A DNA stretch of 64,000 nucleotides, from assembly GCA_964650545.1 (NCBI GenBank), contig CAZYTZ010000001.1:23686-87685 (forward strand), written 5' to 3'. Of this stretch, positions 1,497-22,107 are shown piece after piece (within the stretch, counting starts at the first letter, position 1; each line of letters begins with the position of its first letter). Under the pieces are notes generated by a model. It was not told where the DNA came from and did not search any database. It was given only the letters and a program-made list of their open reading frames with translations. This stretch comes from Candidatus Micrarchaeota archaeon (GTDB taxonomy: Archaea > Micrarchaeota > Micrarchaeia > Anstonellales > Anstonellaceae). Both the position numbers and the translations under genes were made by a program.

Positions 1497-1498
1497 TT

Positions 1499-3935: not shown

Positions 3936-3947
3936 ATGGTGATTTTC

Positions 3948-5111
3948 ATGAGAAAAGTTGCAATTGTTGGAGTCGGAATGAGCAAGTTTGGCGAGGAGTG
4001 GACCCGCGGCTTTCGCGACATGCTGATTGACGCTGGTGGCAAGGCTGTTGAGGATGCCAAGCTCTCAGGAAGCGAGATTGATGCCATGTATGTTGGTACC
4101 ATGGCCCCCGGCTCGCTTGTGGGCCAGGAGCACATTGGCGCTTTAGTGGCTGACTACATGGGCCTCACGCCAGTGCCTTCCACGCGCGTGGAGGCTGCCT
4201 GCGCATCAGGTGGCGTGGCGCTGCGCCAGGGTTACATGGCAATTGCATCTGGCATACACGACTGCGTTGTTGTGGGCGGCGTGGAGAAGATGACTGACAC
4301 GCCGGGCAATGAAGTCGCCTCAGCGCTGGGCGGCGCAGGCGACCAGGAGTGGGAGCTTTTCATGGGTGCCACTTTTCCAGCAATCTACGCGTTCATGGCA
4401 AGGAGGCACATGAAGGAGTATGGCACCACTGAAGAGCAGATGGCGTCAGTGGCCGTGAAGAACCATGCCAATGCCGCGAAAAACAAGTATGCGCACTTCC
4501 AAAAAGAAATAACGATTGAAACCGTGCTGAAAAGCAAGCAAGTGGCATCCCCTCTCAAGCTTTTCGACTGCGCGCCCATCACTGATGGCGCCGCAGTGGT
4601 TGTTCTCATGCCTCTGGACAGGGCGAAAAAGCACTGCGAAAAACCCATTGAAATAACCGCATCAGCGCAGGCATCAGACTACCTGGCACTCCACTCTCGC
4701 GCCTCCATGACCGAGCTTAATGCCACCAAGGTGGCTGTGAAAAAGGCATATGGGCAGGCAAACGTGTCTGTAAAGGACATTGACGTAGTGGAGGTTCACG
4801 ACTGCTTCACCATTGCCGAGATAATGGCAATTGAGGACCTTGGTTTTTTCCCCAAGGGAAAAGGCGGCCAAGCTTCACTTGAGGGCAAGACTGCGCTTAA
4901 CTCAGAAATATCAGTGAACACTTCAGGCGGCTTGAAAGGCTGCGGCCACCCAGTGGGTGCCACAGGAATAAAGCAGGCTGTTGAAGTGGTGTGGCAGCTT
5001 CGCGGCGAGGCAGGAGCGCGTCAAGTGAAAGACGCCAAGGTGGGGATGACTCACAACGTGGGCGGCTCAGGCGCAACTGCCGTCGTGCACATAATGAAAA
5101 AATCAGAATGA
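3948..5111 (+). CDS. Acetyl-CoA C-acetyltransferase (thiolase).
   Basis: MRKVAIVGVGMSKFGE... has the thiolase active-site Cys region and a C-terminal GHPVGATG motif. It follows the HMGCS stop codon directly. Confidence 0.9.
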   Translation: MRKVAIVGVGMSKFGEEWTRGFRDMLIDAGGKAVEDAKLSGSEIDAMYVGTMAPGSLVGQEHIGALVADYMGLTPVPSTRVEAACASGGVALRQGYMAIASGIHDCVVVGGVEKMTDTPGNEVASALGGAGDQEWELFMGATFPAIYAFMARRHMKEYGTTEEQMASVAVKNHANAAKNKYAHFQKEITIETVLKSKQVASPLKLFDCAPITDGAAVVVLMPLDRAKKHCEKPIEITASAQASDYLALHSRASMTELNATKVAVKKAYGQANVSVKDIDVVEVHDCFTIAEIMAIEDLGFFPKGKGGQASLEGKTALNSEISVNTSGGLKGCGHPVGATGIKQAVEVVWQLRGEAGARQVKDAKVGMTHNVGGSGATAVVHIMKKSE

Positions 5112-5181
5112 TTTTTTCAGCTGTCGAACTCGCTTTGGCGAGTTCAACATAATGAAAAATGACGTTTAGAGGTAGATACCT

Positions 5182-5589
5182 ATGCCATCTGAAAACCTTG
5201 CAATAACATGGAGGCGCATACCAGAGCGCTACAGGCTGTCTGGAAGCGCGTGCGAGACTTGCAAAACCAACTATTTCCCCACGCGCAAGCTCTGCCCAAA
5301 ATGCCGTCGCAAGGGAAAAATCGTGATGAAGCAGTTTTCAGGCAAGGGCAAAGTCTACTCATTCACCGGGGTGACCTCCGGGCCGCCTGGCTTTGAGCTG
5401 GAAGCGCCATACGTGCTTGCCATAATTGAGCTTGAGGAAGGGCCGCGCCTCACCGCGCAGGTGGTGGGCGTGAAGGGACAGGACGTAAGCATAGGCGCGC
5501 ATGTTGAGATGATTTTCCGCAAGATACTGGAGGATTCGCCAGAAGGGCTCCTCCACTATGGCTACAAGTTCAGGCTCCTTAAGAAATGA
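5182..5589 (+). CDS. DUF35 OB-fold/zinc-ribbon protein, the scaffold partner of the HMGCS/thiolase complex.
   Basis: It has a C-x2-C...C-x2-C zinc ribbon (CETCKTNYFPTRKLCPKCRRKG) and an OB-fold-like C-terminus. An SD-like agaggtag precedes the start, and its position after the thiolase gene is conserved. Confidence 0.85.
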   Translation: MPSENLAITWRRIPERYRLSGSACETCKTNYFPTRKLCPKCRRKGKIVMKQFSGKGKVYSFTGVTSGPPGFELEAPYVLAIIELEEGPRLTAQVVGVKGQDVSIGAHVEMIFRKILEDSPEGLLHYGYKFRLLKK

Positions 5590-5646
5590 GCAAACACTGA
5601 CTGGGCGTCCGAAAGCTTTATATCTTTATTTCAAAATAATAGCTTC

Positions 5647-6177
5647 ATGTTCAAAAAATTGAATTTGTTTTCAAGAACAGAAATGAAAGTGCTATCGTTC
5701 ATCTCGAGGAAAGATGGCGAGCTTTACGAGCGGCAAATTGCAGATGGCGCAAAGGTGAGCGTTGGGTCGGCGAATTCAATACTCCGGGAATTCGCTGCAA
5801 TAGGGCTGATTTTGCAGGAAAGGAAGGGAAAAATGCTTTTTTACCAGAGGAACGACAGCAACCCGCTCCTGCGGCAATTCAAGGTCTTCTCAACAGTGAA
5901 TGAGCTAATGCCCTTTGTCGGCACCATCATGCCCCTTTGCAGCCGCATTGTCCTTTTTGGCAGCTGCGCGGAAGGCAGGAACGGGGAAGGAAGTGACATT
6001 GACCTTCTTATACTGGCACAGGAAAAGGAAAAGGTCAGGCGGCTGTCAGCGGAAAACCCACACATCCAGGCAATACTTCTAAGCCCTGCTGAGTATTCTC
6101 AGCTGGAAAGGAAGGACAAGCCCCTTTTCAGCCGGATAAGGACTGGGATAGAGATTTATGGTGGTGACAATGGATAG
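5647..6177 (+). CDS. Minimal nucleotidyltransferase (MNT) domain protein with an N-terminal winged helix.
   Basis: It carries the GS-x9-SDIDLLIL nucleotidyltransferase motif (LFGSCAEGRNGEGSDIDLLIL). It overlaps the downstream HEPN gene by 20 nt. Confidence 0.7.
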   Translation: MFKKLNLFSRTEMKVLSFISRKDGELYERQIADGAKVSVGSANSILREFAAIGLILQERKGKMLFYQRNDSNPLLRQFKVFSTVNELMPFVGTIMPLCSRIVLFGSCAEGRNGEGSDIDLLILAQEKEKVRRLSAENPHIQAILLSPAEYSQLERKDKPLFSRIRTGIEIYGGDNG

Positions 6178-6598
6178 CCGGTTTAGCCGTTGCCTGAAGG
6201 AAGGGAAGCTTGTGAAGATTGGCGTGCAGCCAGACTTGGCCAAAAAGGAGGCTGACGCGGCGGCATACGACCTTCAAAGCGCCGAGAAGTCGCTTGAGGA
6301 AGGCAACCCGAAATGGGCAACTGTCCAGGCATACTATTCCATGTTCCACACTGCAAAGGCGCTTGCCTTCCATAAGGGATACCGTGAAAAAAGCCACGCC
6401 TGCCTCTCAATAGCCCTAAAAGCCCTTTTTGTGGATGCCAACGAAATGGAAGCAGGGCAATTCGAGCATTTCAGGGACTGCATGGCGCTGCGCAAAGACG
6501 CGGACTACGGGCTTATCTATTCGGACAAGTCAGCCGAGGAAGTAGTCAGGTGGGCGCGCGAATTTTTGGCTGCTGCGGGCAAAATCCTGCCCAAATAG
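6158..6598 (+). CDS. HEPN domain protein, partner of the upstream MNT.
   Basis: The helical HEPN fold pattern (AKKEADAAAYDLQSAEKSLEEGNPKWATVQAYYSMFHTAKALAFHKGYREKSH) and overlap with the MNT gene fit a classical HEPN-MNT toxin-antitoxin arrangement. Confidence 0.7.
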   Translation: MVVTMDSRFSRCLKEGKLVKIGVQPDLAKKEADAAAYDLQSAEKSLEEGNPKWATVQAYYSMFHTAKALAFHKGYREKSHACLSIALKALFVDANEMEAGQFEHFRDCMALRKDADYGLIYSDKSAEEVVRWAREFLAAAGKILPK

Positions 6599-6605
6599 CC
6601 TGTCT

Positions 6606-6935
6606 TCAGATGAATTTCACGCCGCAGGCAGGGCAGGACACCATGTAGTAGTTCGCCACATAGCCGCACATCGGGCAGCGGTACTGCTGCTGGCTGGGCG
6701 GCGCGCGCTGCTCCACCAGGGAATGGCCGCAGTTCGAGCACTTTTCCGCTTTCAAGTCGTTTGCAGTATCGCATTTCGGGCACTTAATCCTGAACATGGA
6801 CTCAACATGCGTGCCGCACGACGGGCAGCGCTCCATGCCAAGCACCAAGTCAGCCTTGCATTTGGGGCACTTTGCCTTCATCTTCGCGTGCGGCTTGGGG
6901 CGAAGCGCATCTGATATCAAGTCGAGCATTCCCAT
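6606..6935 (-). CDS. Multi-zinc-ribbon protein with five CxxC pairs.
   Basis: It has CPKCKADL, CPSCG, CPKCD, CSNCG, CPMCG and CPACG repeats. The start is placed at ATG 6933-6935, which is 27 nt downstream of a minus-strand TTTTTATAG element, suggesting a leaderless mRNA. The ORF-track GTG at 6956 would leave no room for a promoter. Confidence 0.5.
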   Translation of the reverse strand: MGMLDLISDALRPKPHAKMKAKCPKCKADLVLGMERCPSCGTHVESMFRIKCPKCDTANDLKAEKCSNCGHSLVEQRAPPSQQQYRCPMCGYVANYYMVSCPACGVKFI

Positions 6936-6957
6936 AAGAAAAGTTCCGATGCGCACC

Positions 6958-6966
6958 TATAAAAAG
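6958..6966. promoter_or_regulatory. AT-rich TATA-like element (ctataaaaag). It could serve the minus-strand zinc-ribbon gene and possibly the plus-strand tRNA-Ala transcript.
   Basis: This is the only AT-rich octamer in the 6936-7067 intergenic region. It lies about 27 nt from the zinc-ribbon ATG and about 100 nt upstream of tRNA-Ala, with two hairpins (7017-7038 and 7044-7059) in between. Confidence 0.3.
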
Positions 6967-7067
6967 CCTTCACGTCTGAATGGGGAAGGCAAAATCCTCT
7001 GGGATTTTGCCATCTTCGTCGTGCCCGCAGGCACGACGTCTACCGAAAACCTGCGGGTTTTCGCTAT

Positions 7068-7259
7068 GGGCCCGTGGCGCAGTGGTAGCGCGCCTGCTTT
7101 GCAGAACCCTTTTGCTCGCTCCAGATGGGGACGCTCGCAAAAGCGTTCACGGAAAACGCAAATGGGTTTCAAAAAAGCAGGAGGCCGGGGGTTCGAAGGA
7201 CCTTTTTCGGGATGCCTAAAAAGCTCCGCCAAAAAGGGCTGAAATTCCCCCCGGGTCCA
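7068..7259 (+). tRNA. tRNA-Ala (anticodon UGC) with two introns: one in the anticodon loop (about 7104-7175, after position 37) and one in the T-loop (about 7198-7245, between positions 59 and 60).
   Basis: Manual fold. The acceptor GGGCCCG pairs with CGGGTCC, giving the G3:U70 alanine identity pair, and the discriminator is A73. The D-arm is GCGC-AGTGGTA-GCGC. The anticodon stem is CCTGC/GCAGG with loop TTTGCA...A. The T-arm is GGGGG-TTCGAA[intron]T-CCCCC. CCA is not encoded, and a T-run follows. Confidence 0.65.
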
Positions 7260-7273
7260 TTTTTTCTTTTTGC

Positions 7274-10200
7274 TTAGAAGTTCAAGCCAAATTTCAGGTA
7301 GAAGAGGAAGTCATTCTTGTCCCTGAAGCCTTCGTATCTGAAGCCCGCTCCCCCATAGCCGGTCGTGCCCATAAAGCGCCCCGTTTTCATGTACTCCAGC
7401 TCAATGTTCTTCTTGATTATGTCCTTATAGAACTGGGTGCCAAGGCCAAGGGCTATGCGGTTGGAGCCGAAATATCCCACTCCCTTCATCCCCACGTTTG
7501 TGAAGCCGTCGGAAAAGTCCCTGATGGAGCCCACGCGCGTCAGGTTGACGATGTATGTGACTTTTTTGCCAGCATGGGTGAACTGGAGCTTGTAAAAATC
7601 ATCAAGTGTGCTTGCCGAAGCCTCTATGACGTTGTTCTTTATTCCGATGCCGGCCTCAACGATGTACTTGTCCCGGCGCAAAGGCTCTTTCGTTTCCTGG
7701 GCAATGGCTGTTGGGTAATCCGGGATGGTCTTAAGAACGTCCTTCTCGGGCATGCCCCTGTCCAGCATTTCCTGCGCCGCAGCATCCTTTGATATGCGGG
7801 TGGCGATGATGACTGCCTTGAAGTTTGCGTTTTTGCTTTTGTACACGCCGCCCAATGTCTGGATTTTGCCTGGCGATTCCGCGCTGGTCATGGCGACTAT
7901 GCCCCACCTATTGTTGAAATCAAGGAAAGTGGAGACCATGGGGCCGGGAACGCCCATCTGCTTGCCGCTTGTAATGCTCACCACGCCGCCAAACGTCTTG
8001 TAGGTCCCGTCATCCTGCGGTGTCTGTCGCGTGAAGGTCAGCGATATGTCTGAAATGTCGGTTCCATAGCGCTTGAATATCGAGCTGTAGTCTGCACTGT
8101 TGAAGAGATTATTCATCGTCTTGCACATTCTGTCGCTCGCAGCATTCAGCTCCTGCTCCGTATGGTATGGGTTGTCCAGCACAGCCTGGTATTCCTCATA
8201 TGCTGAGCTGAGCACGGATATGTCCGTGTAAAGATACCCCCCCAAAAGCTCCTTGTCCTCGTTCGTCGGAGGGTTGTACCAGTTCATGGAAAGGTTAAAG
8301 CCGTATTCCACGCCCTTTTTGCTTTCGCCCTCAATCTTAATCGCGCCCTTGTATGATGTCCTGGTGCTGTTCGGGTAGTCATTGTACTGGAGCACATATT
8401 TCATGGGTATGCTCTGGAACTCGCCTTCAGTTCCGACCGTGGCGGAATTTATGGAGGTTTTTTTGGAGCCGTCAGGAAGTTCCTCGTCAGCCCAGCTGAA
8501 ATAGCCATAGTTCCTCAAAAGCGAGCCCGTGCCCTTCCCGTCCTTCGAATAGCTTTTGGACTGGTATGCCGTCCTGCCGCCTGCAAATCCACGGTCAGAG
8601 CCGGCGAACGAAAGGTTGAAGAGCGCTCCATCAAAGCTTTCGTGGCTATAGCCAACCGCGCCCACTCTCCCCAAGCTCTCAATTTTCCTGTAGCTGTCAA
8701 GCCTTGCCTGGCCATAATTGCTTCCAATGTAAAAGCCAGACGATGTCGGAAGGTCCTGTATTGTTCTTGCATCAAGCTCGTAGTAGCTTGCCCAGAAGGT
8801 GTGCTTGTGGTAGCCTTCCGGCTTGCCATCATACCCATCTCCGCGGGCAATGATGCCTGCAGCCGATTCCTTGTCAACCGTCATGCCCCCGACAGCTGCC
8901 ATGTCTAGCCTCTTGCCAAGCTCTTCGCTTCCCATGCCTATGAAAAATCCGACGTCGGTCGCCTGGCGCTCCTTCTGGTTGAGCACCCGCGCCTGCACAT
9001 AGCCAATGCCCTGCGCCTCCTTGTAGCCTATCACTCCTGCCCCCGCGCAATAATTCTGGACAAACTCGGAATTCCTGATGCCTTCCAGCTGCTGCCCAAG
9101 GTACTTTGTGATGTCGTTGCGGTATTCGTCGTTGAAATAAAATTCGACCCAGTTGCTGCCAGCAATTCTGTAGTAGACATGCGCCTCGTCGTAATACCAT
9201 TCGTTTTTGGACTGCGTCCCTGTGGCCTGGTGCACCTCAAGGGAGTAGTGCGGCTTTTGATTGGCATCCAAAACGGTCTTTTTTGACACCACATATATCT
9301 TCCCGTCAATTTCCTGCGAGCCAATGACGCCATCCTGCTTGTCCTTATTGCTGCTCAGAGTATCTGAGGTTATCTGAAGCTGCGAGGCAAGGCTGCTGTA
9401 ATTGGAATCTGAAATGCCGTTTTCGTCAAAGGTGAACAGCAGGGTGCTTGAGGACTCAGAGATGTTGTCTGCGCTGAAATAATGGCGGTTGAAGCGCGCA
9501 AGGAGCCGCGAGTTCTCGCCTGAAGCATTAAGCGTCTGGCTTATGTCCTGGGAAACAGTCTTTGTCTTATGCCCGAAAACAAGGTCAGGTTCAACATCTT
9601 TTCTGACGTAAGCCGACCCGTACGCGTCATCAATTATCATCCTGTCAAGGAACCCATCCTTTACCAGCTTGAAGTTTTTTGCCTGGTCGAGGAAGCTGAA
9701 CGTGTCTGACTGAGTGGTGTCTGTAATTTCCCTGTAATAAACGCCTCTTGCGTCAAGCAGCCCGCCCCTGTCTGTTTTCCCCAAAGCGCCCCCTCCACCG
9801 CCGGAGGTGGTGCTCCTCTCGGTCATCCCTCCTGCCGCAGCCAAGTACCCTGTCCCGCTCCTGTCAAAAAGTGCGGGGGATGTGCCTTGCGAGATGATTC
9901 TCCTGAATATCCTGTCAAGCTCAGCAGAGGCGCTGACTATGTCGAGGGAATATTCCGTAGATGCGCCCCTAAGGAAAATGTCCCTCAGGTACACCCCTGC
10001 CCAGCTCTTTTTCATGAAAACAGCCGATTGGGACTTCAGAACCTGCGCTTGCGACGGAATGTAGCTGTCGTTCCAAAGGTCATAGGGGCTTCTTGGGACC
10101 TCAATCGGCGTCCATTGGCCAAACCTGTGCTGCGGCAGCTGGTCGGTAAGGAGCCTGGTGGCATCGGTAAGGACCGACCTTTCGTATTCGCCGGTTATCA

Positions 10201-12139
10201 GGGCCGGGCTTACCCTGATGTACCCGTTTTTTACAGTAAACATCTGGTTGGTGAAATTGGCAAGCAGGTTGTCAGACCACAGGCGGCTTGTTGCGACGTT
10301 TGTTGTGAATTCCACCAGCTTTCCTATCCTGTTCTGGCTTTGGAATGCCGAGTATATCTGGTATGAATCCGAGAGCGCAAGCTGGAGGAGCTTTGACTTT
10401 GAGTTTATGTCTATCAGGTCGTACTCGTTCTTGTATATGTTGATGAACATCTCGGGCTTGCTGAGAAGCCAGAAAGACATGCCTACTGGGGCTCCATCCA
10501 GGCTCACGAAAATGTCCTTTGGCCTGTTCAGGCCGTTGGCCATGACTCCTGCCTCGGTGACTGTCAGGTCGAATTGGGAGCACTCAAGCATGAAACTGTC
10601 TCTCTCGGTTTTCAAAACATCCGGGTCCGTTGCAATTTCCCAAGCCCCTTCTGCGCCCAGGCCAGTAAGAGTTGTGAGGAAGCCGTCTATCTTGCCCTTA
10701 ACTGTGGCAAGCTGGCTGTTGGCGGCGAATTTCTGCGAAACCGAAGTGATGTCTGACGTGATTTTCTGGAACTCTGCTATGAAATCATCATGTTCAATCT
10801 CATGCGGATCTGCCAAGGCTTTTGCCATTATGCCCTTGAAGCTGTTCCAGGCATTGGCAAGCAGGATGACTGATGCCTGATACTCGTTGATTGTCTGCCC
10901 CCCTGCCATTCCAAGCCCCATTGGGGTTGAAAAAGCCTCGTTCGACCTTATCAGGTCAAGCCCTGCCACTGTGGAAAACATGTTGAATGCCGAGCGGTTT
11001 GACTGCCCCTTCTTGATCCCTTTTGGCAGAAGGACGGTCTTGTCCTTTGCCTCGAAAAGGTATTGTGCAGCATCCGGGTTGATGGCCTGGGCATCGCTGA
11101 AAAGCCTGTTCAGCTTATCCACGTTGTTTGCAAGTATGTTTGCAATGAATGCATAGCCAAGCGTAAGGGCGGAATTGCCGTCTTTTCCCTGGCGCGGGAA
11201 CCCGGCCGGGCTTGTGCCAAGCGCATTTGACAGCACATCATTCATCTTCCCAAGGTGCGTCGAGTCCCCGAATATCGCCCTTATTGCATAGTCCTTTGCC
11301 CTACCGTCGATGTTTTCCCCCTCAAAATCTTCTATTGCTGCAACTGCGGCCTCGGTGCTTCCTGCGCCAACATAGGCGGCTTTCAAAAGGTTGTCAATCC
11401 TGTTGAAGTGGTTGATGCAGCTTGCCACGCCGAATGCGAAATCCCCTACTGCGCGCTGGCTTGCGGATTCCACCTCCAGCTTGCCATCCTTGCCTTCGCC
11501 TATTTTAAGCCCGCCTTTAACCACGATGCCAGCGCCTTCAAGCCCTGCAAAGACGGTCTCTATTTGCCTAATGTAGGGCTTCCTATCTTCCTCTGGAATG
11601 AAGGCAAGGATGTAAAGGTTGCTGCTTATTGCAGCTATGCCGTCATCTATATCCTTTCCAATCGAAACGTAGTATTCCAAGTCGTTCCAGTTGGCGTAAA
11701 GGTTGAATTCATCGGTTTTCCTGCCTATCGTGTTCAATGCCTCTGAAATCGCCTGGGTGCTCTCGTTTATTATGGAAGCATCCTTGTCGGCAGCCCCTGC
11801 AACGGGCTGGTAGAAGGGATTGTCAACTTTTGCGATTTCGCCCTTCGCCCTGCTCAGTATCGCAGCTTCAGACAGGCCCTTCTTCATGCCGTTGTTTATG
11901 ATGTCAACAGAATTCAAGTAGATTGTCACTGCATAGTCCAAAAGCTTCTTGTTGCTGTCGCTGCTGTCTTTGGCATACAAATCATTTGCACAGAGGTGGA
12001 GGTTTTCCAACCCGGTCTTCAGGTCTCTGAGGCTTGTGGCGTTTTTTATGCCGTCAAGTATCCTTTTGATGGCTGGATTGCTGGAAACCTCAACATCTCC
12101 CAAGTCCAGGTTCTTTATCTGCCTAGCTCTAAACACCAT
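7274..12139 (-). CDS. Giant hypothetical protein (1621 aa) with no recognisable domain. Its C-terminus looks like a beta-strand-rich region ending ...FLFYLKFGLNF.
   Basis: It is an uninterrupted 4.9-kb ORF with an ATG start and is the last gene of a four-gene co-directional cluster. The C-terminal alternating hydrophobic pattern ends in a terminal Phe. Confidence 0.65.
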   Translation of the reverse strand: MVFRARQIKNLDLGDVEVSSNPAIKRILDGIKNATSLRDLKTGLENLHLCANDLYAKDSSDSNKKLLDYAVTIYLNSVDIINNGMKKGLSEAAILSRAKGEIAKVDNPFYQPVAGAADKDASIINESTQAISEALNTIGRKTDEFNLYANWNDLEYYVSIGKDIDDGIAAISSNLYILAFIPEEDRKPYIRQIETVFAGLEGAGIVVKGGLKIGEGKDGKLEVESASQRAVGDFAFGVASCINHFNRIDNLLKAAYVGAGSTEAAVAAIEDFEGENIDGRAKDYAIRAIFGDSTHLGKMNDVLSNALGTSPAGFPRQGKDGNSALTLGYAFIANILANNVDKLNRLFSDAQAINPDAAQYLFEAKDKTVLLPKGIKKGQSNRSAFNMFSTVAGLDLIRSNEAFSTPMGLGMAGGQTINEYQASVILLANAWNSFKGIMAKALADPHEIEHDDFIAEFQKITSDITSVSQKFAANSQLATVKGKIDGFLTTLTGLGAEGAWEIATDPDVLKTERDSFMLECSQFDLTVTEAGVMANGLNRPKDIFVSLDGAPVGMSFWLLSKPEMFINIYKNEYDLIDINSKSKLLQLALSDSYQIYSAFQSQNRIGKLVEFTTNVATSRLWSDNLLANFTNQMFTVKNGYIRVSPALITGEYERSVLTDATRLLTDQLPQHRFGQWTPIEVPRSPYDLWNDSYIPSQAQVLKSQSAVFMKKSWAGVYLRDIFLRGASTEYSLDIVSASAELDRIFRRIISQGTSPALFDRSGTGYLAAAGGMTERSTTSGGGGGALGKTDRGGLLDARGVYYREITDTTQSDTFSFLDQAKNFKLVKDGFLDRMIIDDAYGSAYVRKDVEPDLVFGHKTKTVSQDISQTLNASGENSRLLARFNRHYFSADNISESSSTLLFTFDENGISDSNYSSLASQLQITSDTLSSNKDKQDGVIGSQEIDGKIYVVSKKTVLDANQKPHYSLEVHQATGTQSKNEWYYDEAHVYYRIAGSNWVEFYFNDEYRNDITKYLGQQLEGIRNSEFVQNYCAGAGVIGYKEAQGIGYVQARVLNQKERQATDVGFFIGMGSEELGKRLDMAAVGGMTVDKESAAGIIARGDGYDGKPEGYHKHTFWASYYELDARTIQDLPTSSGFYIGSNYGQARLDSYRKIESLGRVGAVGYSHESFDGALFNLSFAGSDRGFAGGRTAYQSKSYSKDGKGTGSLLRNYGYFSWADEELPDGSKKTSINSATVGTEGEFQSIPMKYVLQYNDYPNSTRTSYKGAIKIEGESKKGVEYGFNLSMNWYNPPTNEDKELLGGYLYTDISVLSSAYEEYQAVLDNPYHTEQELNAASDRMCKTMNNLFNSADYSSIFKRYGTDISDISLTFTRQTPQDDGTYKTFGGVVSITSGKQMGVPGPMVSTFLDFNNRWGIVAMTSAESPGKIQTLGGVYKSKNANFKAVIIATRISKDAAAQEMLDRGMPEKDVLKTIPDYPTAIAQETKEPLRRDKYIVEAGIGIKNNVIEASASTLDDFYKLQFTHAGKKVTYIVNLTRVGSIRDFSDGFTNVGMKGVGYFGSNRIALGLGTQFYKDIIKKNIELEYMKTGRFMGTTGYGGAGFRYEGFRDKNDFLFYLKFGLNF

Positions 12140-12147
12140 TCGCCCAC

Positions 12148-14571
12148 CTACAATTGGCTTATCTCATAATGATTAATGGCCTTATTCGCAAGGTCGCCTA
12201 CTTCGGAAATACCCGCGAGGATCTCGATTATTCTAGAGTCTGTTGTCGTGCTTGCCCAATTCACAAACTCCCTCATTATTGCGTCTGTAGCGGCTTGGTC
12301 TATCTGCGTATCCCCTAGCTTTCCCTTTAGCAGCGCAGCATTGATTTCCTGCCTGTTTTTCGTGATGAATCCACTCAGGCGGGACATGCTCACTGGAAGC
12401 GCAGATTCGCCCCATCCCGCCTGCTCGCTTTCCTTCAGCCCCGCAATCCCGGCCGCCAGCTGCGCGGCGCCAAGCCTGCCCTTGGCCAATTTATCATCCA
12501 ATACCAGCCCCTCAAGATGGGAAGTGAGCCTTTCAGCCCCCACCCCCTCCAGCGCGGCTCGCACTGCCGTTTCATTCCCCAATGTCACAAGCCATTGCGG
12601 CAGGGCGACTGCTCGCGTCAGGTCAACGTCTCCAAATGCCGTGGCTGTTACCGCAACATCCTCAGTTATAGTGGTTTCCAGCTGGCTGGCGGTTTTCTCT
12701 TGCTGGCCCGTTGCCGCATTGTAGCCATTTATCGCAGATAGCACTTTTTGCCTGTCAAGGTTTAAGGTGCCATCCTCGCTTCTCAGGCCCGCCCTGTAGC
12801 TGCCATCCTCTTCCTTGAGGCTCGCCACGAGGCCGTCGAACAGCGAGTTTTCAGCCTCGGTGTCTATCTTTCCGTTCTTGTCAGTGTCGCACTTGGCAAG
12901 GATTGCCTGGTAAATGCCGGATGCCGCCCAGCCGCCTTCTGCCACCGCAGGGTCAAGCGCAATGAGCGCTGCAACGCTGTCAAGCTTTGGAACCCTGGCG
13001 GGCTTGGCATTCTCGCCTGCAATGAATGCAAACAAGTCTGCTGCCTGCCCGAGCTTTTCCTTCCCATTGAAGTAATTCAGCATTGCCTCGTTATTCTGCT
13101 CGTTTTCGAATATGATTGTTGCCCGCTTGCCCTTGGCCTCTGAGATTGCGCCAAGCTTCAAAAGGTCGGCTTTGAGCTCATGCATGATAAGCCTCTGCAC
13201 CCCCTCGTCATCCAGCACGCCCTCCTGCCCCTTCCCAAGCGCCGCCACGATTGCTTTGCGGTCAAAGTGGAGGTTTGACACACCTGCCTTGTCTGCAATC
13301 CCCTTGTCCAGAGCGTAAAAGCTGCTGCCTATCTTCTTCACAGTCCCGGTCTCGCCGCCGTTTTCCTTCACTTTCTTCCTGGCATCCCTCTCCACCACAA
13401 TGCCGAGCTCCGCCAGCCTGCCAAGCGCGCTCTTGTCAGTGATGCTCCCAACAAGCTTGCCATCATCATCCAGCGTGCCCGTGATTTTCGTTATCCTGCT
13501 GCAAATGGCCAAGGTTTCCCGGCTAACAGGCACTTTAACGGTCGATTCCCCGGCTTCCTTGACGAAAGCACCCTCTGCCTCCTGCACCGAGTACAGGCCC
13601 TCATCGTTCTTTTCCAAAGCCATTGCGCTGCCATCAAGAACCAGCTTCACGCGCCAGTCCTGCTGGTACACATTCACATCAGTGTAAGCGTCAAGCGCGC
13701 CCGGAGTCTCGGCCACATCCTCTGGCAATTCCACCTCGCCAGGCCTTTTCATTGCCTCCTCGTCCTCAACTTGTGCTTTGTCCCCAACTATTTTCTGGAA
13801 GTTTCTTTGCCAGAAGCTGTCTTTCCTCATGCTGTCAAGCGCAAGCAGGGCATTTTTCACAGCCACTTTCCTGTCCTGCCCATCCTCTGCTTTTGGCAGC
13901 TTGTTGAAGTCCTTGTTGGTCTCCTTGCTGTTCCTGCCGCACAGCATGGTGAAGTATGCGTCAAACAGCTTGCGCTCGTTTGCGCTCATCTCAGTCGCCT
14001 TCCAGTCAAACTCCTGCTCCAGCCAGCCGCGCCTTACCATGTAATCAACAGTGGCTGATACGTTCTTGTCTATCCTCTCCTTTGTAAGCGTTAGGAAGGC
14101 GAACTTGCTGTTTATCTCATCAGCCATGCCATACGCATGACCAAGGAGCTTGTTCTCTGCAGCGGAGGCCTCAGGGACAGGAGCATTCTTGACGCCTGGC
14201 TCTGCGCCGTATTTCAGATAAGAGGAAATCGCATCTATGGCATCAGCGCAATCCTTAGCGTCATTCTCTTTTCCGAGCTCAGCATAGAGCTTTTTTGCAG
14301 CCAAATAGTTCCGGTATGCCAGCTGGTAATTCCCGCCTTCTTCCTTGTCATAGTGGTTTATTGTCAGGTTCCAATGCGCGTCCGCCATTATCACTTTGGC
14401 GTCATCTCTCTGGAGGGTGGTCGCATTCGGCGCCCTCAGGGCTTCATTGCATTTTGATATGGCAAGCCTGTACTCTTCCACAGTGGCGTCTGGCTTGTTT
14501 TTTAGACCTTCTGCGTCGGCCAACAGGCCTGCAACATCAACAGCCTGTGTCGTCTGGGTGACCATTGCCAT
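12148..14571 (-). CDS. Large hypothetical protein (807 aa), predicted mostly alpha-helical, containing an EF-hand-like loop (DTDKNGKIDTEAE).
   Basis: It has an ATG start and sits 8 nt upstream of the 1621-aa gene. No catalytic motifs were recognised. Confidence 0.65.
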   Translation of the reverse strand: MAMVTQTTQAVDVAGLLADAEGLKNKPDATVEEYRLAISKCNEALRAPNATTLQRDDAKVIMADAHWNLTINHYDKEEGGNYQLAYRNYLAAKKLYAELGKENDAKDCADAIDAISSYLKYGAEPGVKNAPVPEASAAENKLLGHAYGMADEINSKFAFLTLTKERIDKNVSATVDYMVRRGWLEQEFDWKATEMSANERKLFDAYFTMLCGRNSKETNKDFNKLPKAEDGQDRKVAVKNALLALDSMRKDSFWQRNFQKIVGDKAQVEDEEAMKRPGEVELPEDVAETPGALDAYTDVNVYQQDWRVKLVLDGSAMALEKNDEGLYSVQEAEGAFVKEAGESTVKVPVSRETLAICSRITKITGTLDDDGKLVGSITDKSALGRLAELGIVVERDARKKVKENGGETGTVKKIGSSFYALDKGIADKAGVSNLHFDRKAIVAALGKGQEGVLDDEGVQRLIMHELKADLLKLGAISEAKGKRATIIFENEQNNEAMLNYFNGKEKLGQAADLFAFIAGENAKPARVPKLDSVAALIALDPAVAEGGWAASGIYQAILAKCDTDKNGKIDTEAENSLFDGLVASLKEEDGSYRAGLRSEDGTLNLDRQKVLSAINGYNAATGQQEKTASQLETTITEDVAVTATAFGDVDLTRAVALPQWLVTLGNETAVRAALEGVGAERLTSHLEGLVLDDKLAKGRLGAAQLAAGIAGLKESEQAGWGESALPVSMSRLSGFITKNRQEINAALLKGKLGDTQIDQAATDAIMREFVNWASTTTDSRIIEILAGISEVGDLANKAINHYEISQL

Positions 14572-14584
14572 CTCCTCCTCAAAA

Positions 14585-17500
14585 TCACTTCAGCTTCAGG
14601 TTCTTCTTGGCTTTCGAAGTACCCGCCTTGGTCTCTTGCACTTCTGGCGCTGCGTTCACAACAGTGTTCGTGTCGCTTGCATTAAGTTCTACTGGCGGAA
14701 CAACAGGCTTTATTGTAGTGTCTGGCGTCTGTCCCTGCGCAAACTTCTCAAGCATTATTGTCCGCTCATCCGCAGGCGTATTCACAATCCCCTGCAGGTA
14801 ATCTCGCATGATTTTAGGCATCTGCGAGCTGTCAGGGGCAGTAAGCGTGACGGCATTCACAAAGCTGGAAAAGCTTTCCGGCTTGCTTGCTATCTCGTTG
14901 AATATGTCTCGCTGTTCATTGGTGAAAGTCATGTCAGCCCTTGCCATGATTTCCCGCATTGCTATCTTGTTGGCTGATTCCTGCTCCCCTGCCTGTGTTG
15001 GGGATGCCTGCACGAACTGCACTCCTGTGATTCCCCTGTTCGCGTAGAGCACGCCATTGTCAACAGTGAAGTTGCCAAGCAGCACCTTGTCTTTCGAGAG
15101 CACCTGGTAAGTTGTGCCTTCAGCAGGGGAAAACACCTTCCCGTCCCCTGCCAAGAGCCTGCCATTCGCGTCAGTTGTGCATGCGATTTCTTTCTTGTCA
15201 TCCCCTACAAGCACAAGGTTCCGGCTGGCAAGCCGCGCGCTGTTGGGCGCGTAGAGCACGACTGCGCCGTTCTCAAGGTCAAAATACGGCGGTTTCACAT
15301 CCACGATCAGCAGCGTCTTCCTGTCAAAGTCCTTCTGCGCGCTGATTTCAATCCTGTGCCTGCCAAAGCCAAGATCGCTCAGGAAGATCCCCTCCCTATT
15401 GCTCTCCCTCTTCGCATCCCTCAGCTCCCCATCAACCAGTCCGATTCTCTGCACCTCGTTGCCATCCGTCCGATAATATATCTTCCCATCATTCTTGCCC
15501 AAAAAGGTGGGGAGGTACTTGAGGTCCAGGCTCGCGATGCCCTCTCCCGGAAGAATGGTTGCTGATTTTACTGTGGTCTTCAGCTTCTTGTCGTATGCTT
15601 CTTCGGTTGCCACCACTCCTGCGTGCGTGAGCCTTCCGGTAAGCGCAGTCACAGGGACATACTGCGCCTTGCTCCAGACCATCTTGCCCAATTTGCCCAG
15701 GCCAACTCCGATGCCAACCCCTCCATCTTTCACAAGGGCGCCTATCATTCCTGGCGCAGCAGGTCCAGTCCAGCTTGCCCACCCAGTGCCTTGCAGGAAC
15801 CGGCCCACAAGCCCCTTTCCATAGTATAGGGACTCCAAGTTGTCCGCAGTTGCCCCAGTATACATGTCTTTTGCCACGGCCGATGTCCACCAGGTAATTT
15901 TCTTAGCTGATTCCTTCAGGGCATTTGCGGCACCTGCCTGGACTGCCTCTTCCACAAGATTGCGGCTGGCGCGAATACCTTCAATTTCAGTCCCTTCAAA
16001 GCCAGCTTTCCGAAGTGCATTTGGCAGGCTTTCCCAAATTTTGCCAGTCAGTGCCTTCCCGTCCTTTGCCGCCTTCTCCAGGGCGTCCTTGGAAACTCCT
16101 TTGAGGAGGTCGCTTGCAACCCCTTCCAGCACCACCTGCCTCATCTGCTTTGCCATCTCGTCCTTCATCTTTGGAAGCACAATTCCAATCTCTTCCTTCA
16201 CGATGGCTGCCAGCTCGGCATCCGCCATCAAAATCTTACCGTTTACCGTAACCTTTCCCTTGACTCTGTTCACAACCCCGCCGACCCAGTTTTCTAATTT
16301 GGTTTCCATCCCGGCCCTTTTCCATACTTCCTGTGGCACGTCCTTGAATGCATCTACAAAGCTCTTTCGCAGCCTGTCTTGTAAGGCAGGAACGAATTCA
16401 TCAAGCTCGCGCAGCGTCTTTTTCCCAATCTTCTTCCCAACCAATGCCGTGGTGGTCGTGATTCCTTTTAACGTTTCCCTTATCCATTCCTCGCTGCCGA
16501 CCTTCTTGGCGGCATCCTCAAGGCTTTTCTTCATCGGGGTAATCAAGAGGTTTTTCTTGACAAACCTCACGGCATTGACCTCAGCATCCAGCACTGCTCC
16601 GCTCAGCCCGACTGAGATGTTGCGGCTCATGCCCTTCACCATCTTTTCACCGAGTTTCTTCTCCACAATCTCTCGCACAGCCGCCTCGCTGAGCTCGCGA
16701 TTGCCAACATCTTTCATTATCTCCTTCAATGTCTTGCCAAAAAGATCGCCTGTTTCTTTGGACACAACTGCCCTTATCTGGTCTTTCGTCAGGCGCTTAC
16801 CCATATTCGTCCAGATGTCGTCTACCAGCATGTTTTCAAAATCGCGCATGGCTTCTTTGGCAAAGAGGCGAGATTTCTCCATGCCTCCTGGCACAACCCT
16901 CACTTCCTTTGCCAAAGCATTTGCTGTCTCCCTGAAGGCTATGAGATTATTCCGTACGATTTCCCTGATTCCCTTCGTAGTGAACTCCTTTGCCAGCAAT
17001 TTTTCCGCCTTTGCCCTGAGGACCGCCTCGCTGCCTGGGATTAGCCTGCCGAACGTGAGGCTCTTGGTGAAAGACCCGTCAATCACGGCTCCCTTCCAAA
17101 GCTTTACCGAGCCTTTCCCAAGGCTTTTGAGAAGCTTAGCTCCGATGAATACATCTGATATCACGCCTATGGTTGCAAGGCTGGCAGTAGTAAAACCTTC
17201 CTGATACAAATATCCGTCCTTGTTGCGGTTTCCCCGCTTCATCTTTTCAATGCCATCTAGGAGGTCTGGGACGCTTATGACCCACCTCAGGGCTTTCCCC
17301 AAAAATGTCCTCTTCTTGACGCCTATTATTTCTACCTCTGCAAGCTGCCAGTTGACCGCGTTCACAGGTATACTCCTAACATCGTCGTATATCTTCTCGC
17401 AAAATTTCTTAGCCTGCTCAACGCTATTTGCCCCTGAAAGCCCCTCTTTCAGGTCTTCCCTGGCTGCTCCCAGAAAAACATCTGCATACGTGGCCCAGCC

Positions 17501-17962
17501 GGTTCCGCCAACGGCTTCCTGGCTGCCTGCCCATATGTCTTTTGCACCCTTCAAATCATTGCTTGCCAGGCATTTTTCAATGGAAGCAAGCCTGTTGTAG
17601 GCCGCGAGCTTGAGTTCGACGTAGGATGCAAAGCTGTCCAGTGCAACGAATGCACGCGCCGCTGTTCCCATATCAGTGATAGCTGTTAGGGCACCTACGA
17701 AACCATTCATCTGCGCCAGCGCAGCTTGCAGGCTCGGGTCTTTTTTGAGAAATTGGGAGTCCTTGACCAAGTCATTTAACCCAGCAATAGCTTTTTTGAG
17801 GTCATCAAAACTGTTTACATTCCCCCCCAAAATGCCATTTACCATCCCGCGCACATTTCCCATGCCGCGTGCCATGGCTGACCATTCCTTATCCATCTTG
17901 GCATAATTTGGGCCAAGCGCGTTTGCTGGGGTCTCCTTGGTTGCTAATTGGAATACAAACAT
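14585..17962 (-). CDS. Large hypothetical protein (about 1125 aa) with a long Lys/Glu/Ala-rich helical N-terminal half and a Gly/beta-rich C-terminal half.
   Basis: The start is placed at ATG 17960-17962 (MFVFQLATKETPANA...), 11 nt downstream of the preceding gene's stop. The ORF-track GTG at 18061 would overlap the upstream gene by 88 nt. Confidence 0.6.
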   Translation of the reverse strand: MFVFQLATKETPANALGPNYAKMDKEWSAMARGMGNVRGMVNGILGGNVNSFDDLKKAIAGLNDLVKDSQFLKKDPSLQAALAQMNGFVGALTAITDMGTAARAFVALDSFASYVELKLAAYNRLASIEKCLASNDLKGAKDIWAGSQEAVGGTGWATYADVFLGAAREDLKEGLSGANSVEQAKKFCEKIYDDVRSIPVNAVNWQLAEVEIIGVKKRTFLGKALRWVISVPDLLDGIEKMKRGNRNKDGYLYQEGFTTASLATIGVISDVFIGAKLLKSLGKGSVKLWKGAVIDGSFTKSLTFGRLIPGSEAVLRAKAEKLLAKEFTTKGIREIVRNNLIAFRETANALAKEVRVVPGGMEKSRLFAKEAMRDFENMLVDDIWTNMGKRLTKDQIRAVVSKETGDLFGKTLKEIMKDVGNRELSEAAVREIVEKKLGEKMVKGMSRNISVGLSGAVLDAEVNAVRFVKKNLLITPMKKSLEDAAKKVGSEEWIRETLKGITTTTALVGKKIGKKTLRELDEFVPALQDRLRKSFVDAFKDVPQEVWKRAGMETKLENWVGGVVNRVKGKVTVNGKILMADAELAAIVKEEIGIVLPKMKDEMAKQMRQVVLEGVASDLLKGVSKDALEKAAKDGKALTGKIWESLPNALRKAGFEGTEIEGIRASRNLVEEAVQAGAANALKESAKKITWWTSAVAKDMYTGATADNLESLYYGKGLVGRFLQGTGWASWTGPAAPGMIGALVKDGGVGIGVGLGKLGKMVWSKAQYVPVTALTGRLTHAGVVATEEAYDKKLKTTVKSATILPGEGIASLDLKYLPTFLGKNDGKIYYRTDGNEVQRIGLVDGELRDAKRESNREGIFLSDLGFGRHRIEISAQKDFDRKTLLIVDVKPPYFDLENGAVVLYAPNSARLASRNLVLVGDDKKEIACTTDANGRLLAGDGKVFSPAEGTTYQVLSKDKVLLGNFTVDNGVLYANRGITGVQFVQASPTQAGEQESANKIAMREIMARADMTFTNEQRDIFNEIASKPESFSSFVNAVTLTAPDSSQMPKIMRDYLQGIVNTPADERTIMLEKFAQGQTPDTTIKPVVPPVELNASDTNTVVNAAPEVQETKAGTSKAKKNLKLK

Positions 17963-17973
17963 CTCAAACACCC

Positions 17974-18369
17974 CTAAGAGCCCTCCGAGGGCGCTTCGTT
18001 TGCCAGCACGTATCTCATGCTGTAATCTATGAACTCCTTCCCGCCGTTCTCGTCCAGCCACGCCTTCACTGCCTTGAAATTCCTTGAAAGCTCGACATCA
18101 GAGTTAATCTGCCCTTTGAAATCTGGTCTGCTTGGATAAGCATAGTAGACCAACATAGCATAAATTTGCAGGACTTTTTCAGCCTCACCGTGTATCGAAA
18201 CTCTCGCCTGCGCGTTCTTTGTTGAATTATATTTCTCAAACAGCGTGGCAACATACTCCTTTGCCAGGCGGTTGGTGAACCACAGCTTGTAGTCGCTGTT
18301 CGCCACCGCGTCCTCAATCGTCTTGTAAAAGTCGGGCGCGCCTTCCACGAATTCGTTTTTTCCTTTCAT
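17974..18369 (-). CDS. Hypothetical protein (131 aa), first gene of the giant-protein cluster.
   Basis: The start is placed at ATG 18367-18369 (MKGKNEFVEGAPDFYK...), preceded by a GGGGTGG SD-like motif. A TTTAAATA-like element lies further upstream on the minus strand (plus strand about 18491-18500). Confidence 0.45.
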   Translation of the reverse strand: MKGKNEFVEGAPDFYKTIEDAVANSDYKLWFTNRLAKEYVATLFEKYNSTKNAQARVSIHGEAEKVLQIYAMLVYYAYPSRPDFKGQINSDVELSRNFKAVKAWLDENGGKEFIDYSMRYVLANEAPSEGS

Positions 18370-18528
18370 TTCGCCACCCCTACCAGAGAGGAATTTGCCT
18401 CTTTTGGCGCGCAGCTTGCACTCTCCAAAAAGCCACAATCTTGCACTAAATGCATCACACGCGCCTCTTCATGTTTATGCGACGTTCTGTATTTAAACCT
18501 TCCCGGCAAATATAAAAACGCGACCAGC

Positions 18529-19095
18529 ATGGAAATGATTGAGCAGGCTCCAGCCCACAGCAGGGCATCCCAAATCCAGCTTGAGCGCGAGCCGCAGTCA
18601 GTGCGCAAGCCCCGCTTCCCGCGCACGCCGCTTGAGCGCGAGGACGCGTTCATCGACCCTCTGCGCGAGGCAAAGCTCCTTCTCCCTGAGCAGACGGTTG
18701 CTTCTTCCACTATAATGCTTGAGAACGCGGTTGCCACTGTAACACGCCAGCCAAGCTCGCAAAAACAGGGCGCGTTTGCCTCCATTTACGATTATCTGCT
18801 TTCCCTTTTCACTTCCGTGAAAAAGCGCCTGAGGGGCAGCGCGCGCTACAAGGCGCGCTTAACGCAGCGCGGCGAGGAAGCATTGGAACAGCTGCGCTAT
18901 CTTTCGCTTCTTTGCGATGCAACAGACTGCCGCACGCCTGAGGAGGTATTGGCTGCAGAAGGTGCATTCGGCGAGGCATACCATGAGATACTGAGCTTAT
19001 CTTCCAACCTTGAGAGGATGGCTGAAAAAGAGGCAGACCACCATCTTCACCACTACAAGAAGCATTTCTCATCTGTCCTGAGGAGCACTGACTGA
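18529..19095 (+). CDS. Hypothetical protein (188 aa) with a low-complexity N-terminus.
   Basis: It is an ATG-initiated ORF divergent from the giant-protein cluster. It has no recognisable motifs, and the true start may be further downstream. Confidence 0.3.
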   Translation: MEMIEQAPAHSRASQIQLEREPQSVRKPRFPRTPLEREDAFIDPLREAKLLLPEQTVASSTIMLENAVATVTRQPSSQKQGAFASIYDYLLSLFTSVKKRLRGSARYKARLTQRGEEALEQLRYLSLLCDATDCRTPEEVLAAEGAFGEAYHEILSLSSNLERMAEKEADHHLHHYKKHFSSVLRSTD

Positions 19096-20646: not shown

Positions 20647-22107
20647 GTGCGCAACTTGAAAATACAAAACACGCTTTCAGGCAAGAAGGAAGAATTCACG
20701 CCGCTCAAAGGGAACAAGGTGCAAATGTACGTATGCGGCGTCACGCCGTATGACGCCAGCCACCTGGGGCATGCGCGCACGTTCGTCTCTTTTGACAATA
20801 TCCGCCGCTACCTGATTTTCAAGGGCTTTGACGTCAAGTTCGTGCAGAACGTCACCGACATAGACGACAAGATAATCAACCGCGCGCGCGAGCGCAAGGT
20901 GGAGCCCACTGCGCTTGCTGACAAGTACGCCAAGCAGTACGAGAAGGAGTGCGCTCTGCTTGGTGTGATGGCACCAGACACGTCTCCGCGCGTGAGCGGC
21001 TTTATCCCGCAGATAATCTCGCTCATAGAACAACTTGAGAAAAAGGGCGTTGCCTACAAGACTTCATCAGGCGTTTACTTCGAAGTTGGCAAATTCCCTC
21101 AATACGGCAAGCTCTCGCACCAGTCATCAGAGGCGCTGAAAGCCGGTGCCAGGGTGGAAGTGGACGAGGAGAAGAAAAACCCCCAGGACTTTGCTCTTTG
21201 GAAGCTTGGCGAGGAGCCTGGCGCCACGTTCGGCTCGCCATGGGGCAACGGAAGGCCTGGCTGGCACATAGAGTGCTCTGCAATGGCAACCTCGCTTTTG
21301 GGCGACACAATTGACATACACGGAGGCGCGCGCGACCTGATTTTCCCGCACCATGAAAACGAAATCGCGCAGTCAGAGGCTGCAACCGGCAAGCCGTTTG
21401 TGCGCTACTTCGTGCACACAGGCTTTCTCACAGTGAACGGTGAGAAGATGGCAAAGTCGCTTGGCAACTTCATCACCATTTCGGATGGCTTGAAAAAATA
21501 CGGCGCGCAGCCCCTGCGCATGCTTTTTTCACTTTCACACTACTCCAGCCCAATAGACTTTACCGAAGAGTCAGTGAAGGCAGCAGGAAGCGCGCTTTCA
21601 TCTCTTCACGCAGCACTCTCATCAGCGCGCACCTATTCCCCACAAGCATCTGCCAGTGGTGCGCTTGCCGCTGCCGTAGCAGAAGCAGAGGAAAATTTCA
21701 TCTCAGCAATGGACGATGATTTTGATGCTCCATCCGCAATGGCCGCGCTTTTCGCGCTTGCGAAAAAAATAAGCGGCGCCTGTTCAGAGGCAAGCGCAAG
21801 CGAGCAGGAAGTGAAGGCGGCGGCAGCCTTGCTTGAGAAGCTTCTTGGCATCTTTGGTCTTCTCCCGTCTGCAGAGGAAAAGGGCGAGGACGCGTCAGCA
21901 GCCGTGGCAAAAGTTTGCAAGCACTTCAAACTCGCGCACTCAGGCACGCTTGAGGAAATGATAGGCGCGCTCATTGAGGCGCGCAACGAAGCGCGCAAGA
22001 AGAAGGATTTCGCAGCATCTGATTCCATCAGAAGCGAGCTTGCAAAGGCAGGAATCGCGCTTGAGGACAGGAAGGACGGGACAACAGGGTATCGGCTTGC
22101 CAAATAA
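20647..22107 (+). CDS. cysS: Cysteinyl-tRNA synthetase (class I).
   Basis: It has the HIGH motif (SHLGHARTFVSFD) and the KMSKS motif (KMAKSLGN), with canonical CysRS zinc-binding context. It starts with GTG. Confidence 0.9.
   Translation: MRNLKIQNTLSGKKEEFTPLKGNKVQMYVCGVTPYDASHLGHARTFVSFDNIRRYLIFKGFDVKFVQNVTDIDDKIINRARERKVEPTALADKYAKQYEKECALLGVMAPDTSPRVSGFIPQIISLIEQLEKKGVAYKTSSGVYFEVGKFPQYGKLSHQSSEALKAGARVEVDEEKKNPQDFALWKLGEEPGATFGSPWGNGRPGWHIECSAMATSLLGDTIDIHGGARDLIFPHHENEIAQSEAATGKPFVRYFVHTGFLTVNGEKMAKSLGNFITISDGLKKYGAQPLRMLFSLSHYSSPIDFTEESVKAAGSALSSLHAALSSARTYSPQASASGALAAAVAEAEENFISAMDDDFDAPSAMAALFALAKKISGACSEASASEQEVKAAAALLEKLLGIFGLLPSAEEKGEDASAAVAKVCKHFKLAHSGTLEEMIGALIEARNEARKKKDFAASDSIRSELAKAGIALEDRKDGTTGYRLAK

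Follow-up and report, generated by a model that had tools for sequence, protein, structure and literature searches.

For DPANN archaea, which live in attachment to hosts, annotation is lacking for about half of the genes, and host recognition, attachment, and exchange are largely unknown; giant orphan proteins are common in their genomes. The very large proteins described from host-dependent members of the group include the SPEARE proteins of Nanohaloarchaeum antarcticus, which have been proposed to make contact with the host and reportedly contain recognizable protease, adhesion, and nuclease domains. Another is SLP_Mh of Micrarchaeum harzensis, which has an N-terminal signal or transmembrane segment and homology to surface layer (S-layer) domains (10.1101/2021.04.28.441871). 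Cryo-tomography of Microcaldus variisymbioticus ARM-1 has revealed protein connections to the host, the components of which are unknown (PMC11329633). Here we analyzed a 64,000-nucleotide stretch of DNA from a Candidatus Micrarchaeota archaeon (positions 23,686 to 87,685 of contig CAZYTZ010000001.1, assembly GCA_964650545.1), hereafter called the window, in which four genes encode the proteins p131, p1125, p807, and p1621, each named for its length in amino acids. Like SLP_Mh and the SPEARE proteins, the largest of these are very large proteins of a host-dependent DPANN archaeon, but they have no signal peptide, anchor, S-layer domain (Pfam, NCBIfam), or SPEARE-type domain. We tentatively propose that they may form an apparatus of the envelope or of host contact.

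Organization and genomic setting of the operon

The cysteinyl-tRNA synthetase (CysRS) encoded in the window is 78 to 81% identical to those of Candidatus Micrarchaeota metagenome-assembled genomes (MAGs), and the genes flanking the cluster are archaeal housekeeping genes: a trio encoding 3-hydroxy-3-methylglutaryl-CoA synthase, thiolase, and an OB-fold (oligonucleotide/oligosaccharide-binding) protein, as well as ABCE1, Trm1, and aminoacyl-tRNA synthetases. These genes place the host in the Micrarchaeota, among the DPANN archaea. The genomes scanned included no representative of the same species.

All four genes start with ATG and lie on the minus strand, in the order p131 (18369-17974, 131 aa), p1125 (17962-14585, 1125 aa), p807 (14571-12148, 807 aa), and p1621 (12139-7274, 1621 aa). 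Identical gene calls are recorded in four independent assemblies of the organism and, together with the open reading frames (ORFs), confirm the co-directional giant-protein genes described in a first-pass annotation of the letters of this DNA. The spacers between them are 11, 13, and 8 nt long, each with a Shine-Dalgarno (SD)-like GGTG or GAGGAGG. That annotation had given spacers of 8 to 13 nt and one near-overlap; the spacer lengths were borne out, and the near-overlap arises only when the ORFs are taken at their greatest possible length (154 and 1158 aa).

Together, the four genes make up a single operon, and its place in the genome is a fixed slot. On one side of this slot are the CysRS gene, two small genes, YdjM, and a divergent gene for a 188-aa protein (p188), and on the other side are a tRNA-Ala gene, a gene for a 109-aa zinc-ribbon protein, and genes of the mevalonate pathway. 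The same neighbors were found on both sides of giant genes in the contigs carrying the gene 4 homologues P0002 and P0004 and in the related loci L005, L086, and L087. No empty site was seen among the syntenic relatives examined, all of which hold giant genes in the same slot, from two to four in number and about 800 to 1720 aa in size.

As the first reading of the sequence had suggested, no catalytic or named domain could be recognized. None of the four proteins had a significant match in Pfam, NCBIfam, PHROGs, or PADLOC (matches to PHROGs occurred only at E>0.06), and none had a significant match to PDB sequences. Neither a Sec, Tat, or class III signal peptide nor a clear transmembrane helix was found in any of them, and no Walker A, HExxH, or similar catalytic motif is conserved among their homologues.

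The divergent intergenic region between the operon and the p188 gene (18370-18528, no strand assigned) contains A/T-rich TATA-like boxes that were read directly, TTTTTATATTT and TTTAAATA, and is likely to be the promoter region of the operon. The ATG of p131 at 18369 is preceded by GGTAGGGGTGGCGAA. The p188 gene itself (18529-19095, plus strand) is divergent from the operon in every syntenic relative; its product is 71 to 77% identical in close relatives and matches no family; a regulatory role, or that of a constant partner to the cluster, is conceivable. An extra gene encoding approximately 900 aa lies between YdjM and the small genes beside CysRS in L087 (3677-6355, minus strand) and L007 (6296-9004, plus strand) and is not present in the window.

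Exchange of operon content between related species

We compared the operon with the contents of the same slot in related genomes. The flanking proteins of the window and L005 are 71 to 88% identical, whereas the identities are 54% for p131, 29% for p1125, and 28% for p807. For gene 4, p1621 and P0002 are 59% identical over the first 118 aa, and the remaining ~1600 aa of P0002 are unrelated to p1621. Two types of gene 4 body were found, type A in p1621 and P0004 to P0009 and type B in P0002 and in the fourth genes of L087 and L007 (L087_g4 and L007_g4). No profile similarity between the two types was detected with hhalign, and when the C-terminal 450 aa of p1621 and P0002 were aligned by the Smith-Waterman method, the z score against shuffled sequences was -0.2. 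Similarly, the flanks, gene 1, and gene 2 of L005 and L087 are 74 to 77% identical at the nucleotide level, whereas genes 3 and 4 cannot be aligned, and variability increases toward the distal genes of the operon.

The reverse situation was found in two Anstonellaceae MAGs, L013 and L017 (positions 1-9200 of each). Their flanking DNA is 68 to 90% identical, mostly 72 to 84%, whereas the first giant gene (1454 aa) is 99.4 to 100% identical and the third gene, which cannot be aligned, 37 to 43%. A near-identical giant gene beside diverged flanks and a diverged third gene indicates a recent transfer between species together with module replacement. Taken together, these alignments show that the operon sequences are replaced module by module between related species. 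The proposal that this is a variable block thus held insofar as modules are exchanged between relatives; the block is not an island, since it sits in a fixed slot with the same neighbors.

Within the sampled population, a single single-nucleotide polymorphism (SNP) was found in the cluster over four assemblies. The cluster is stable in the population, and the variation therefore does not come from a local hypermutation device; the same count ruled out a diversity-generating retroelement or phase variation operating within the population.

An N-terminal tag shared by nonhomologous giant proteins

The sequence M-F-[VIL]-F-[QY] stands at the initiator methionine of at least 17 giant proteins and is followed by a polar stretch rich in T, K, Q, S, and P. 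These proteins come from the clusters in L005 to L009, L011, L016, and L087 and also include P0008, and many of them have no detectable similarity to each other. In a six-frame translation of 601 kb, the motif was observed 18 times, compared to 2.2 times expected, and in 15 of these 18 occurrences it stood at the start of a long ORF (243 to 1491 aa) behind an SD site. The codons of the tag vary synonymously among copies, and it is therefore the peptide that is under selection. No description of this tag was found in a literature search, and a search for giant proteins or beta-barrels in Micrarchaeota yielded no description of the locus.

Products of genes 1 to 3

The best-conserved member of the operon is p131, homologues of which head the syntenic clusters in L005, L087, L016, and L011; it is absent from the clusters in L007, in L013 and L017, and in the P0004 contig. 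It may possibly be an adaptor or chaperone.

The p1125 protein starts with a version of the N-terminal tag, MFVFQL. The long K/E/A-rich helical region proposed in the first-pass annotation was supported by composition only: residues 300 to 700 consist of 46 to 55% A, E, K, L, R, and Q and have a high helical moment. The protein has one marginal hydrophobic segment (about residues 260 to 278) and a beta-rich region with the conserved motifs FGRHRIE and KPPYFDxENGAVVL. Homologues were found in L005 (29 to 31% identity over ~1000 aa) and L087. Neither p1125 nor its family profile matched PDB or Pfam, and a word-indexed search of 5.8 billion proteins recovered p1125 alone. A metagenome scan with profile A2 recovered a single locus, L087, and one with profile A3 gave no match.

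The acidic protein p807 is preceded by a strong SD site (GAGGAGG) 6 nt upstream. Its family was gathered from eight loci with an iterated hidden Markov model, and three of the eight members matched Pfam families of tetratricopeptide repeats (TPRs; best E value, 2e-21). The only PDB matches of the family profile were TPR proteins, and p807 itself had no TPR match at E<=1. These matches indicate that TPRs are N-terminal in some members of the family and have apparently degenerated in p807. An EF-hand-like loop had also been pointed out in p807. The string is present at residues 562 to 574; it scored 12 bits against a cutoff of 25.4, and each of the seven homologues has either a deletion or a different sequence in its place. 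We therefore rejected its identity as an EF-hand, and the resemblance is probably incidental.

The gene 4 product and its predicted beta-barrel-like C-terminus

The p1621 protein consists of a conserved N-terminal domain of ~118 aa, a mixed alpha/beta body (about residues 120 to 1170), and a beta-rich C-terminal region of ~450 aa. Its N-terminus, MVFRARQIKNLDLGDVEV, lacks a hydrophobic core, and the Kyte-Doolittle threshold was not passed by any window of 19 residues. At the other end, DFLFYLKFGLNF (...FLFYLKFGLNF) shows an alternating hydrophobic pattern and a terminal Phe. The beta-rich C-terminus ending in F noted in the first reading was thus confirmed, and it can be extended: of six full-length type A homologues at 25 to 36% identity, five retain the terminal Phe (p1621, P0004, P0005, P0006, and P0008), and it is also found in L087_g4, which has a type B body.

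Relatives of p1621 are few. An exhaustive HMMER scan with residues 1 to 1200 against 1.84 billion representative proteins yielded seven, none of which has a Pfam domain; those with readable contigs are Micrarchaeota-like and mostly syntenic. In a word-indexed search of 5.8 billion proteins, p1621 recovered only itself and P0002, and the eight-sequence profile A1 recovered only the query. Neither p1621 nor profiles A1 and A2 matched PDB sequences, and no known outer membrane protein (OMP) or autotransporter family was detected in Pfam, NCBIfam, or PDB sequences with the protein or its family profile. Walker A and HExxH strings occur in p1621 and are not kept in P0004. A search for internal repeats gave nothing convincing.

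Among the four operon proteins, structure was predicted for p1621 alone. In a low-confidence AlphaFold2 model, residues ~1173 to 1621 form a succession of hairpins with ~22 long antiparallel strands and two helical inserts, and the predicted local distance difference test (pLDDT) reaches 75 to 86 over the last ~130 residues. When this model was compared to PDB structures with Foldseek, nearly all of the 50 best matches, if not all of them, were beta-barrels of outer membranes or mitochondria, including OmpU, PorB, TamA, Tom40, ushers, LptD, and BamA. The best matches in the viral fold library BFVD were autotransporter beta-domain proteins, with a TM-score of about 0.1. The model thus predicts that the C-terminal ~450 aa of p1621 form a meander like that of an outer-membrane-type beta-barrel.

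The tRNA-Ala gene and other features of the window

The tRNA-Ala(TGC) gene (7068-7259, plus strand) is convergent with p1621 and ends 14 nt from its stop codon. It carries a G3:U70 pair and two introns, one of ~72 nt after position 37 and one of ~45 nt in the T-loop. The unspliced gene was missed by ARAGORN and scored only 21 bits in Rfam; versions spliced in silico were called as tRNA-Ala(tgc) by ARAGORN. An intron-containing tRNA-Ala beside the cluster had been described correctly in the first-pass annotation, at a distance given as 15 nt. In L086, the same double-intron tRNA-Ala (about 6140-6380, minus strand) follows the last giant gene; this comparison of loci shows the tRNA to be a conserved neighbor rather than a scar left by integration. 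The window has a third tRNA-like gene (54606-54697, minus strand, 92 nt), which lies at the Rfam threshold (29.7 bits) with no ARAGORN call and probably encodes a further tRNA with an intron.

Between the mevalonate genes and the zinc-ribbon gene lies a nucleotidyltransferase/HEPN pair resembling a toxin-antitoxin system (5647-6598, plus strand). Neither the P0004 contig nor L086 has this pair at the corresponding position, which indicates a small variable insertion beside the cluster. At the 3' end of the CysRS gene (22008-22057), 10 clustered SNPs distinguish the window from assemblies L001 and L002; the 20 kb around this SNP cluster contain just 1 to 3 differences from the same assemblies. 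Farther away, three paralogous genes encode proteins of ~520 aa (41062-42630, 44658-46241, and 46242-47813, all on the minus strand) that are 33 to 37% identical to each other, have a common N-terminal motif (...STCRLLFG.EIGEL...), match no Pfam family, and adjoin an AAA-type gene (47818-48774).

Discussion

The fixed slot, the operon organization, the lack of enzymes, the tag, the TPRs of the gene 3 family, the docking-type N-terminal domain of p1621, its barrel-like tail, and the exchange of modules point to an envelope apparatus facing a partner that changes. In a DPANN archaeon, this partner would most plausibly be the surface of the host. We therefore read the locus, tentatively and at less than an even chance, as encoding a lineage-specific, multisubunit, and nonenzymatic apparatus of the Micrarchaeota envelope or of host contact, a function that we infer from these features. 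A surface or envelope structure was among the possibilities raised in the first-pass annotation, and it stays the best reading. In such an apparatus, the tag and the N-terminal domain of p1621 would dock the subunits into one assembly, with p131 as its adaptor or chaperone, and p1125 and p807 would form the proximal scaffold. The p1621 barrel would lie in a lipid layer, either the outer layer of the cell itself or the membrane of the host, and the variable body and loops would be exposed. Recombination may have diversified these exposed parts because whatever they encounter, whether the host surface, viruses, or competitors, keeps changing.

Several observations weigh against this proposal. 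The main weakness is export, which is left unexplained because the proteins have no signal peptide or clear transmembrane helix. We know of no BAM-like insertase in Archaea, and no Omp85-like gene was found among the scanned proteins of the 64-kb window. N-glycosylation sequons are not enriched in the operon proteins. Two of these proteins, p807 (MAMVTQTTQ) and p1621 (MVFRARQI), have no canonical tag; p1621 has its own conserved N-terminal domain in place of it. The structural model is also of low confidence: AlphaFold2 prediction of residues 960 to 1621 from the single sequence gave a pLDDT of 35 and was unusable, prediction of the region with six sequences gave a mean pLDDT of 45, and the Foldseek TM-scores were only 0.17 when normalized to the query and 0.34 to 0.37 when normalized to the target. 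Furthermore, long beta-meanders match barrels generically. Finally, whereas two membranes were once postulated for Micrarchaeota, the only cultivated Micrarchaeon examined, A_DKE, has an S-layer rather than an outer membrane (10.1101/2021.04.28.441871).

The exchange of modules and the recent transfer between species would also fit an intracellular conflict or defense system, in which giant, rapidly exchanged, sensor-like proteins with a TPR scaffold recognize viruses or mobile elements, as do the variable sensor domains in STAND/Avs-type systems. The TPRs of the gene 3 family and the lack of signal peptides are in keeping with this, as is the HEPN/nucleotidyltransferase pair just downstream of the operon, past the tRNA-Ala and zinc-ribbon genes. 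We consider such a system unlikely, however: that pair is missing at the same position in the P0004 contig and L086, there is no effector domain or conserved motif, be it of an NTPase, a nuclease, a protease, or another kind, and no PADLOC match, and the predicted barrel with its conserved terminal Phe has no role in it. The operon proteins might instead be polymorphic toxins or effectors, the N-terminal domain or tag of which would direct the delivery of an interchangeable payload against competitors or the host. Their architecture resembles that described for polymorphic toxins (PMC3482391), in that the conserved N-terminus of p1621 and P0002 (59% identity over 118 aa) is fused to unrelated bodies, the tag is common to nonhomologous proteins, and replacement is cassette-like. 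Yet the variable part of these proteins comprises ~1500 aa and is not a short C-terminal module, neither p1621 nor its relatives have a detectable toxin domain, and no known secretion machinery is encoded nearby. There is no small immunity gene after p1621 because the tRNA-Ala gene follows. We judge this alternative to be quite improbable.

About equally improbable, in our view, is an intracellular structural assembly that is cytoskeleton- or organelle-like and unrelated to the envelope. The lack of signal peptides, clear transmembrane helices, and enzymes and the long K/E/A-rich helical regions are compatible with such an assembly, and unexplained tubular structures have reportedly been seen inside ARMAN cells (Comolli et al. 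in 2009). Internal structural proteins are normally conserved, whereas the subunits here are swapped for unrelated sequences between close species, and the prediction of an outer-membrane-type barrel and the conserved terminal Phe point to a membrane. The remaining rival, a remnant of a virus or integrated element inserted at tRNA-Ala, had been raised in the first-pass annotation and is largely refuted; we give it very little probability. The cluster adjoins a tRNA gene, its content is orphan, and near-identical genes occur in two different species (L013 and L017). Its tetranucleotide distance of 0.178 is also the highest of any 11-kb segment of the window (0.09 to 0.147 for nonoverlapping segments), a mild signal that fits an unusual protein composition or exchange with relatives. 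On the other hand, the same slot with intact flanks, including tRNA-Ala, is found in many relatives, and the GC content of the cluster (0.524) is the same as that of the rest of the window; presence in all relatives and a composition like that of the flanks, which had been named as arguments against a mobile origin, are thus largely what was observed. No integrase or recombinase was found in or beside the cluster, and no direct repeat of the tRNA 3' end or other att-like repeat was seen, both in agreement with the first reading. Scans of IMG/VR with p1621 and p1125 yielded no relatives, and there was no virion protein, no PHROG match, and no virion-like or other viral fold for the p1621 model. 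The probability left over beside the envelope or host-contact apparatus and these four rivals, which is the remainder, belongs to something else.

A bolder reading is conceivable, although unlikely: the locus could encode an archaeal analogue of the outer-membrane secretion or assembly machines of bacteria. In it, the large OMP-type barrel of gene 4 would form a pore or an anchor, placed in an outer layer of the archaeon or in the host membrane, the giant subunits would be recruited through their M-F-x-F-Q strand in a donor-strand or usher-like manner, and p131 would be the chaperone. If true, this would give Archaea their first family of beta-barrel membrane proteins and their first N-terminal sorting tag of this kind, with direct bearing on the question of a diderm envelope in Micrarchaeota and on the way in which DPANN cells draw on their hosts. 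With or without it, the locus is a concrete candidate for DPANN-host interaction, since the exchange of parts between species is the pattern expected at an interface with another organism, and the M-F-x-F-Q N-terminus offers a handle for finding further components in genomes. Should the barrel be real, it would represent an outer-membrane-type beta-barrel family in Archaea and would reopen the question of a second membrane or of a host pore planted by the symbiont. Should the barrel prediction fail, the locus still documents the exchange of gene cassettes between archaeal species at a fixed site.

Comparison with known systems

In bacterial OMPs, the beta-signal is a C-terminal alternating hydrophobic pattern with a terminal Phe. 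The C-terminus of p1621 is likewise alternating and hydrophobic with a conserved terminal Phe, and can thus be described as beta-signal-like. A long N-terminal body followed by a C-terminal barrel-like region, as in the p1621 model, is a layout also found in type V autotransporters, and the modelled region can be compared as well to large barrels such as the FimD and PapC ushers, MtrB, and maltoporin. Unlike autotransporters and OMPs, p1621 is archaeal and has no signal peptide and no sequence similarity to OMPs; its low-confidence model has ~22 strands and two helical inserts, whereas classical autotransporters have 12 strands. Bdellovibrio PopA and Neisseria PorB are beta-barrels that are delivered into the membrane of the prey or host (PMC12228718). 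By analogy, p1621 may likewise be a porin-like barrel of a cell that lives on another cell, its transfer being conjecture. There is no homology to these two proteins, which are OMPs of ~300 to 400 aa from diderm bacteria, whereas the barrel predicted here forms the C-terminal part of an archaeal protein of 1621 aa.

The gene 4 products resemble phage tail-fibre or receptor-binding proteins, the SapA S-layer variants of Campylobacter fetus, and polymorphic toxins in joining a conserved N-terminus to a swapped remainder, and in the loci compared here entire genes also move from species to species. Compared to these systems, the gene 4 products have no similarity in sequence or fold, they occupy a fixed chromosomal slot, and no invertible or silent cassettes are in view. 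The features shared with known families are therefore only generic ones, namely, the beta-signal-like C-terminus and the conserved N-terminus with a variable remainder, and as far as our searches reach, the protein families, the tag, and the organization of the locus are new as a system.

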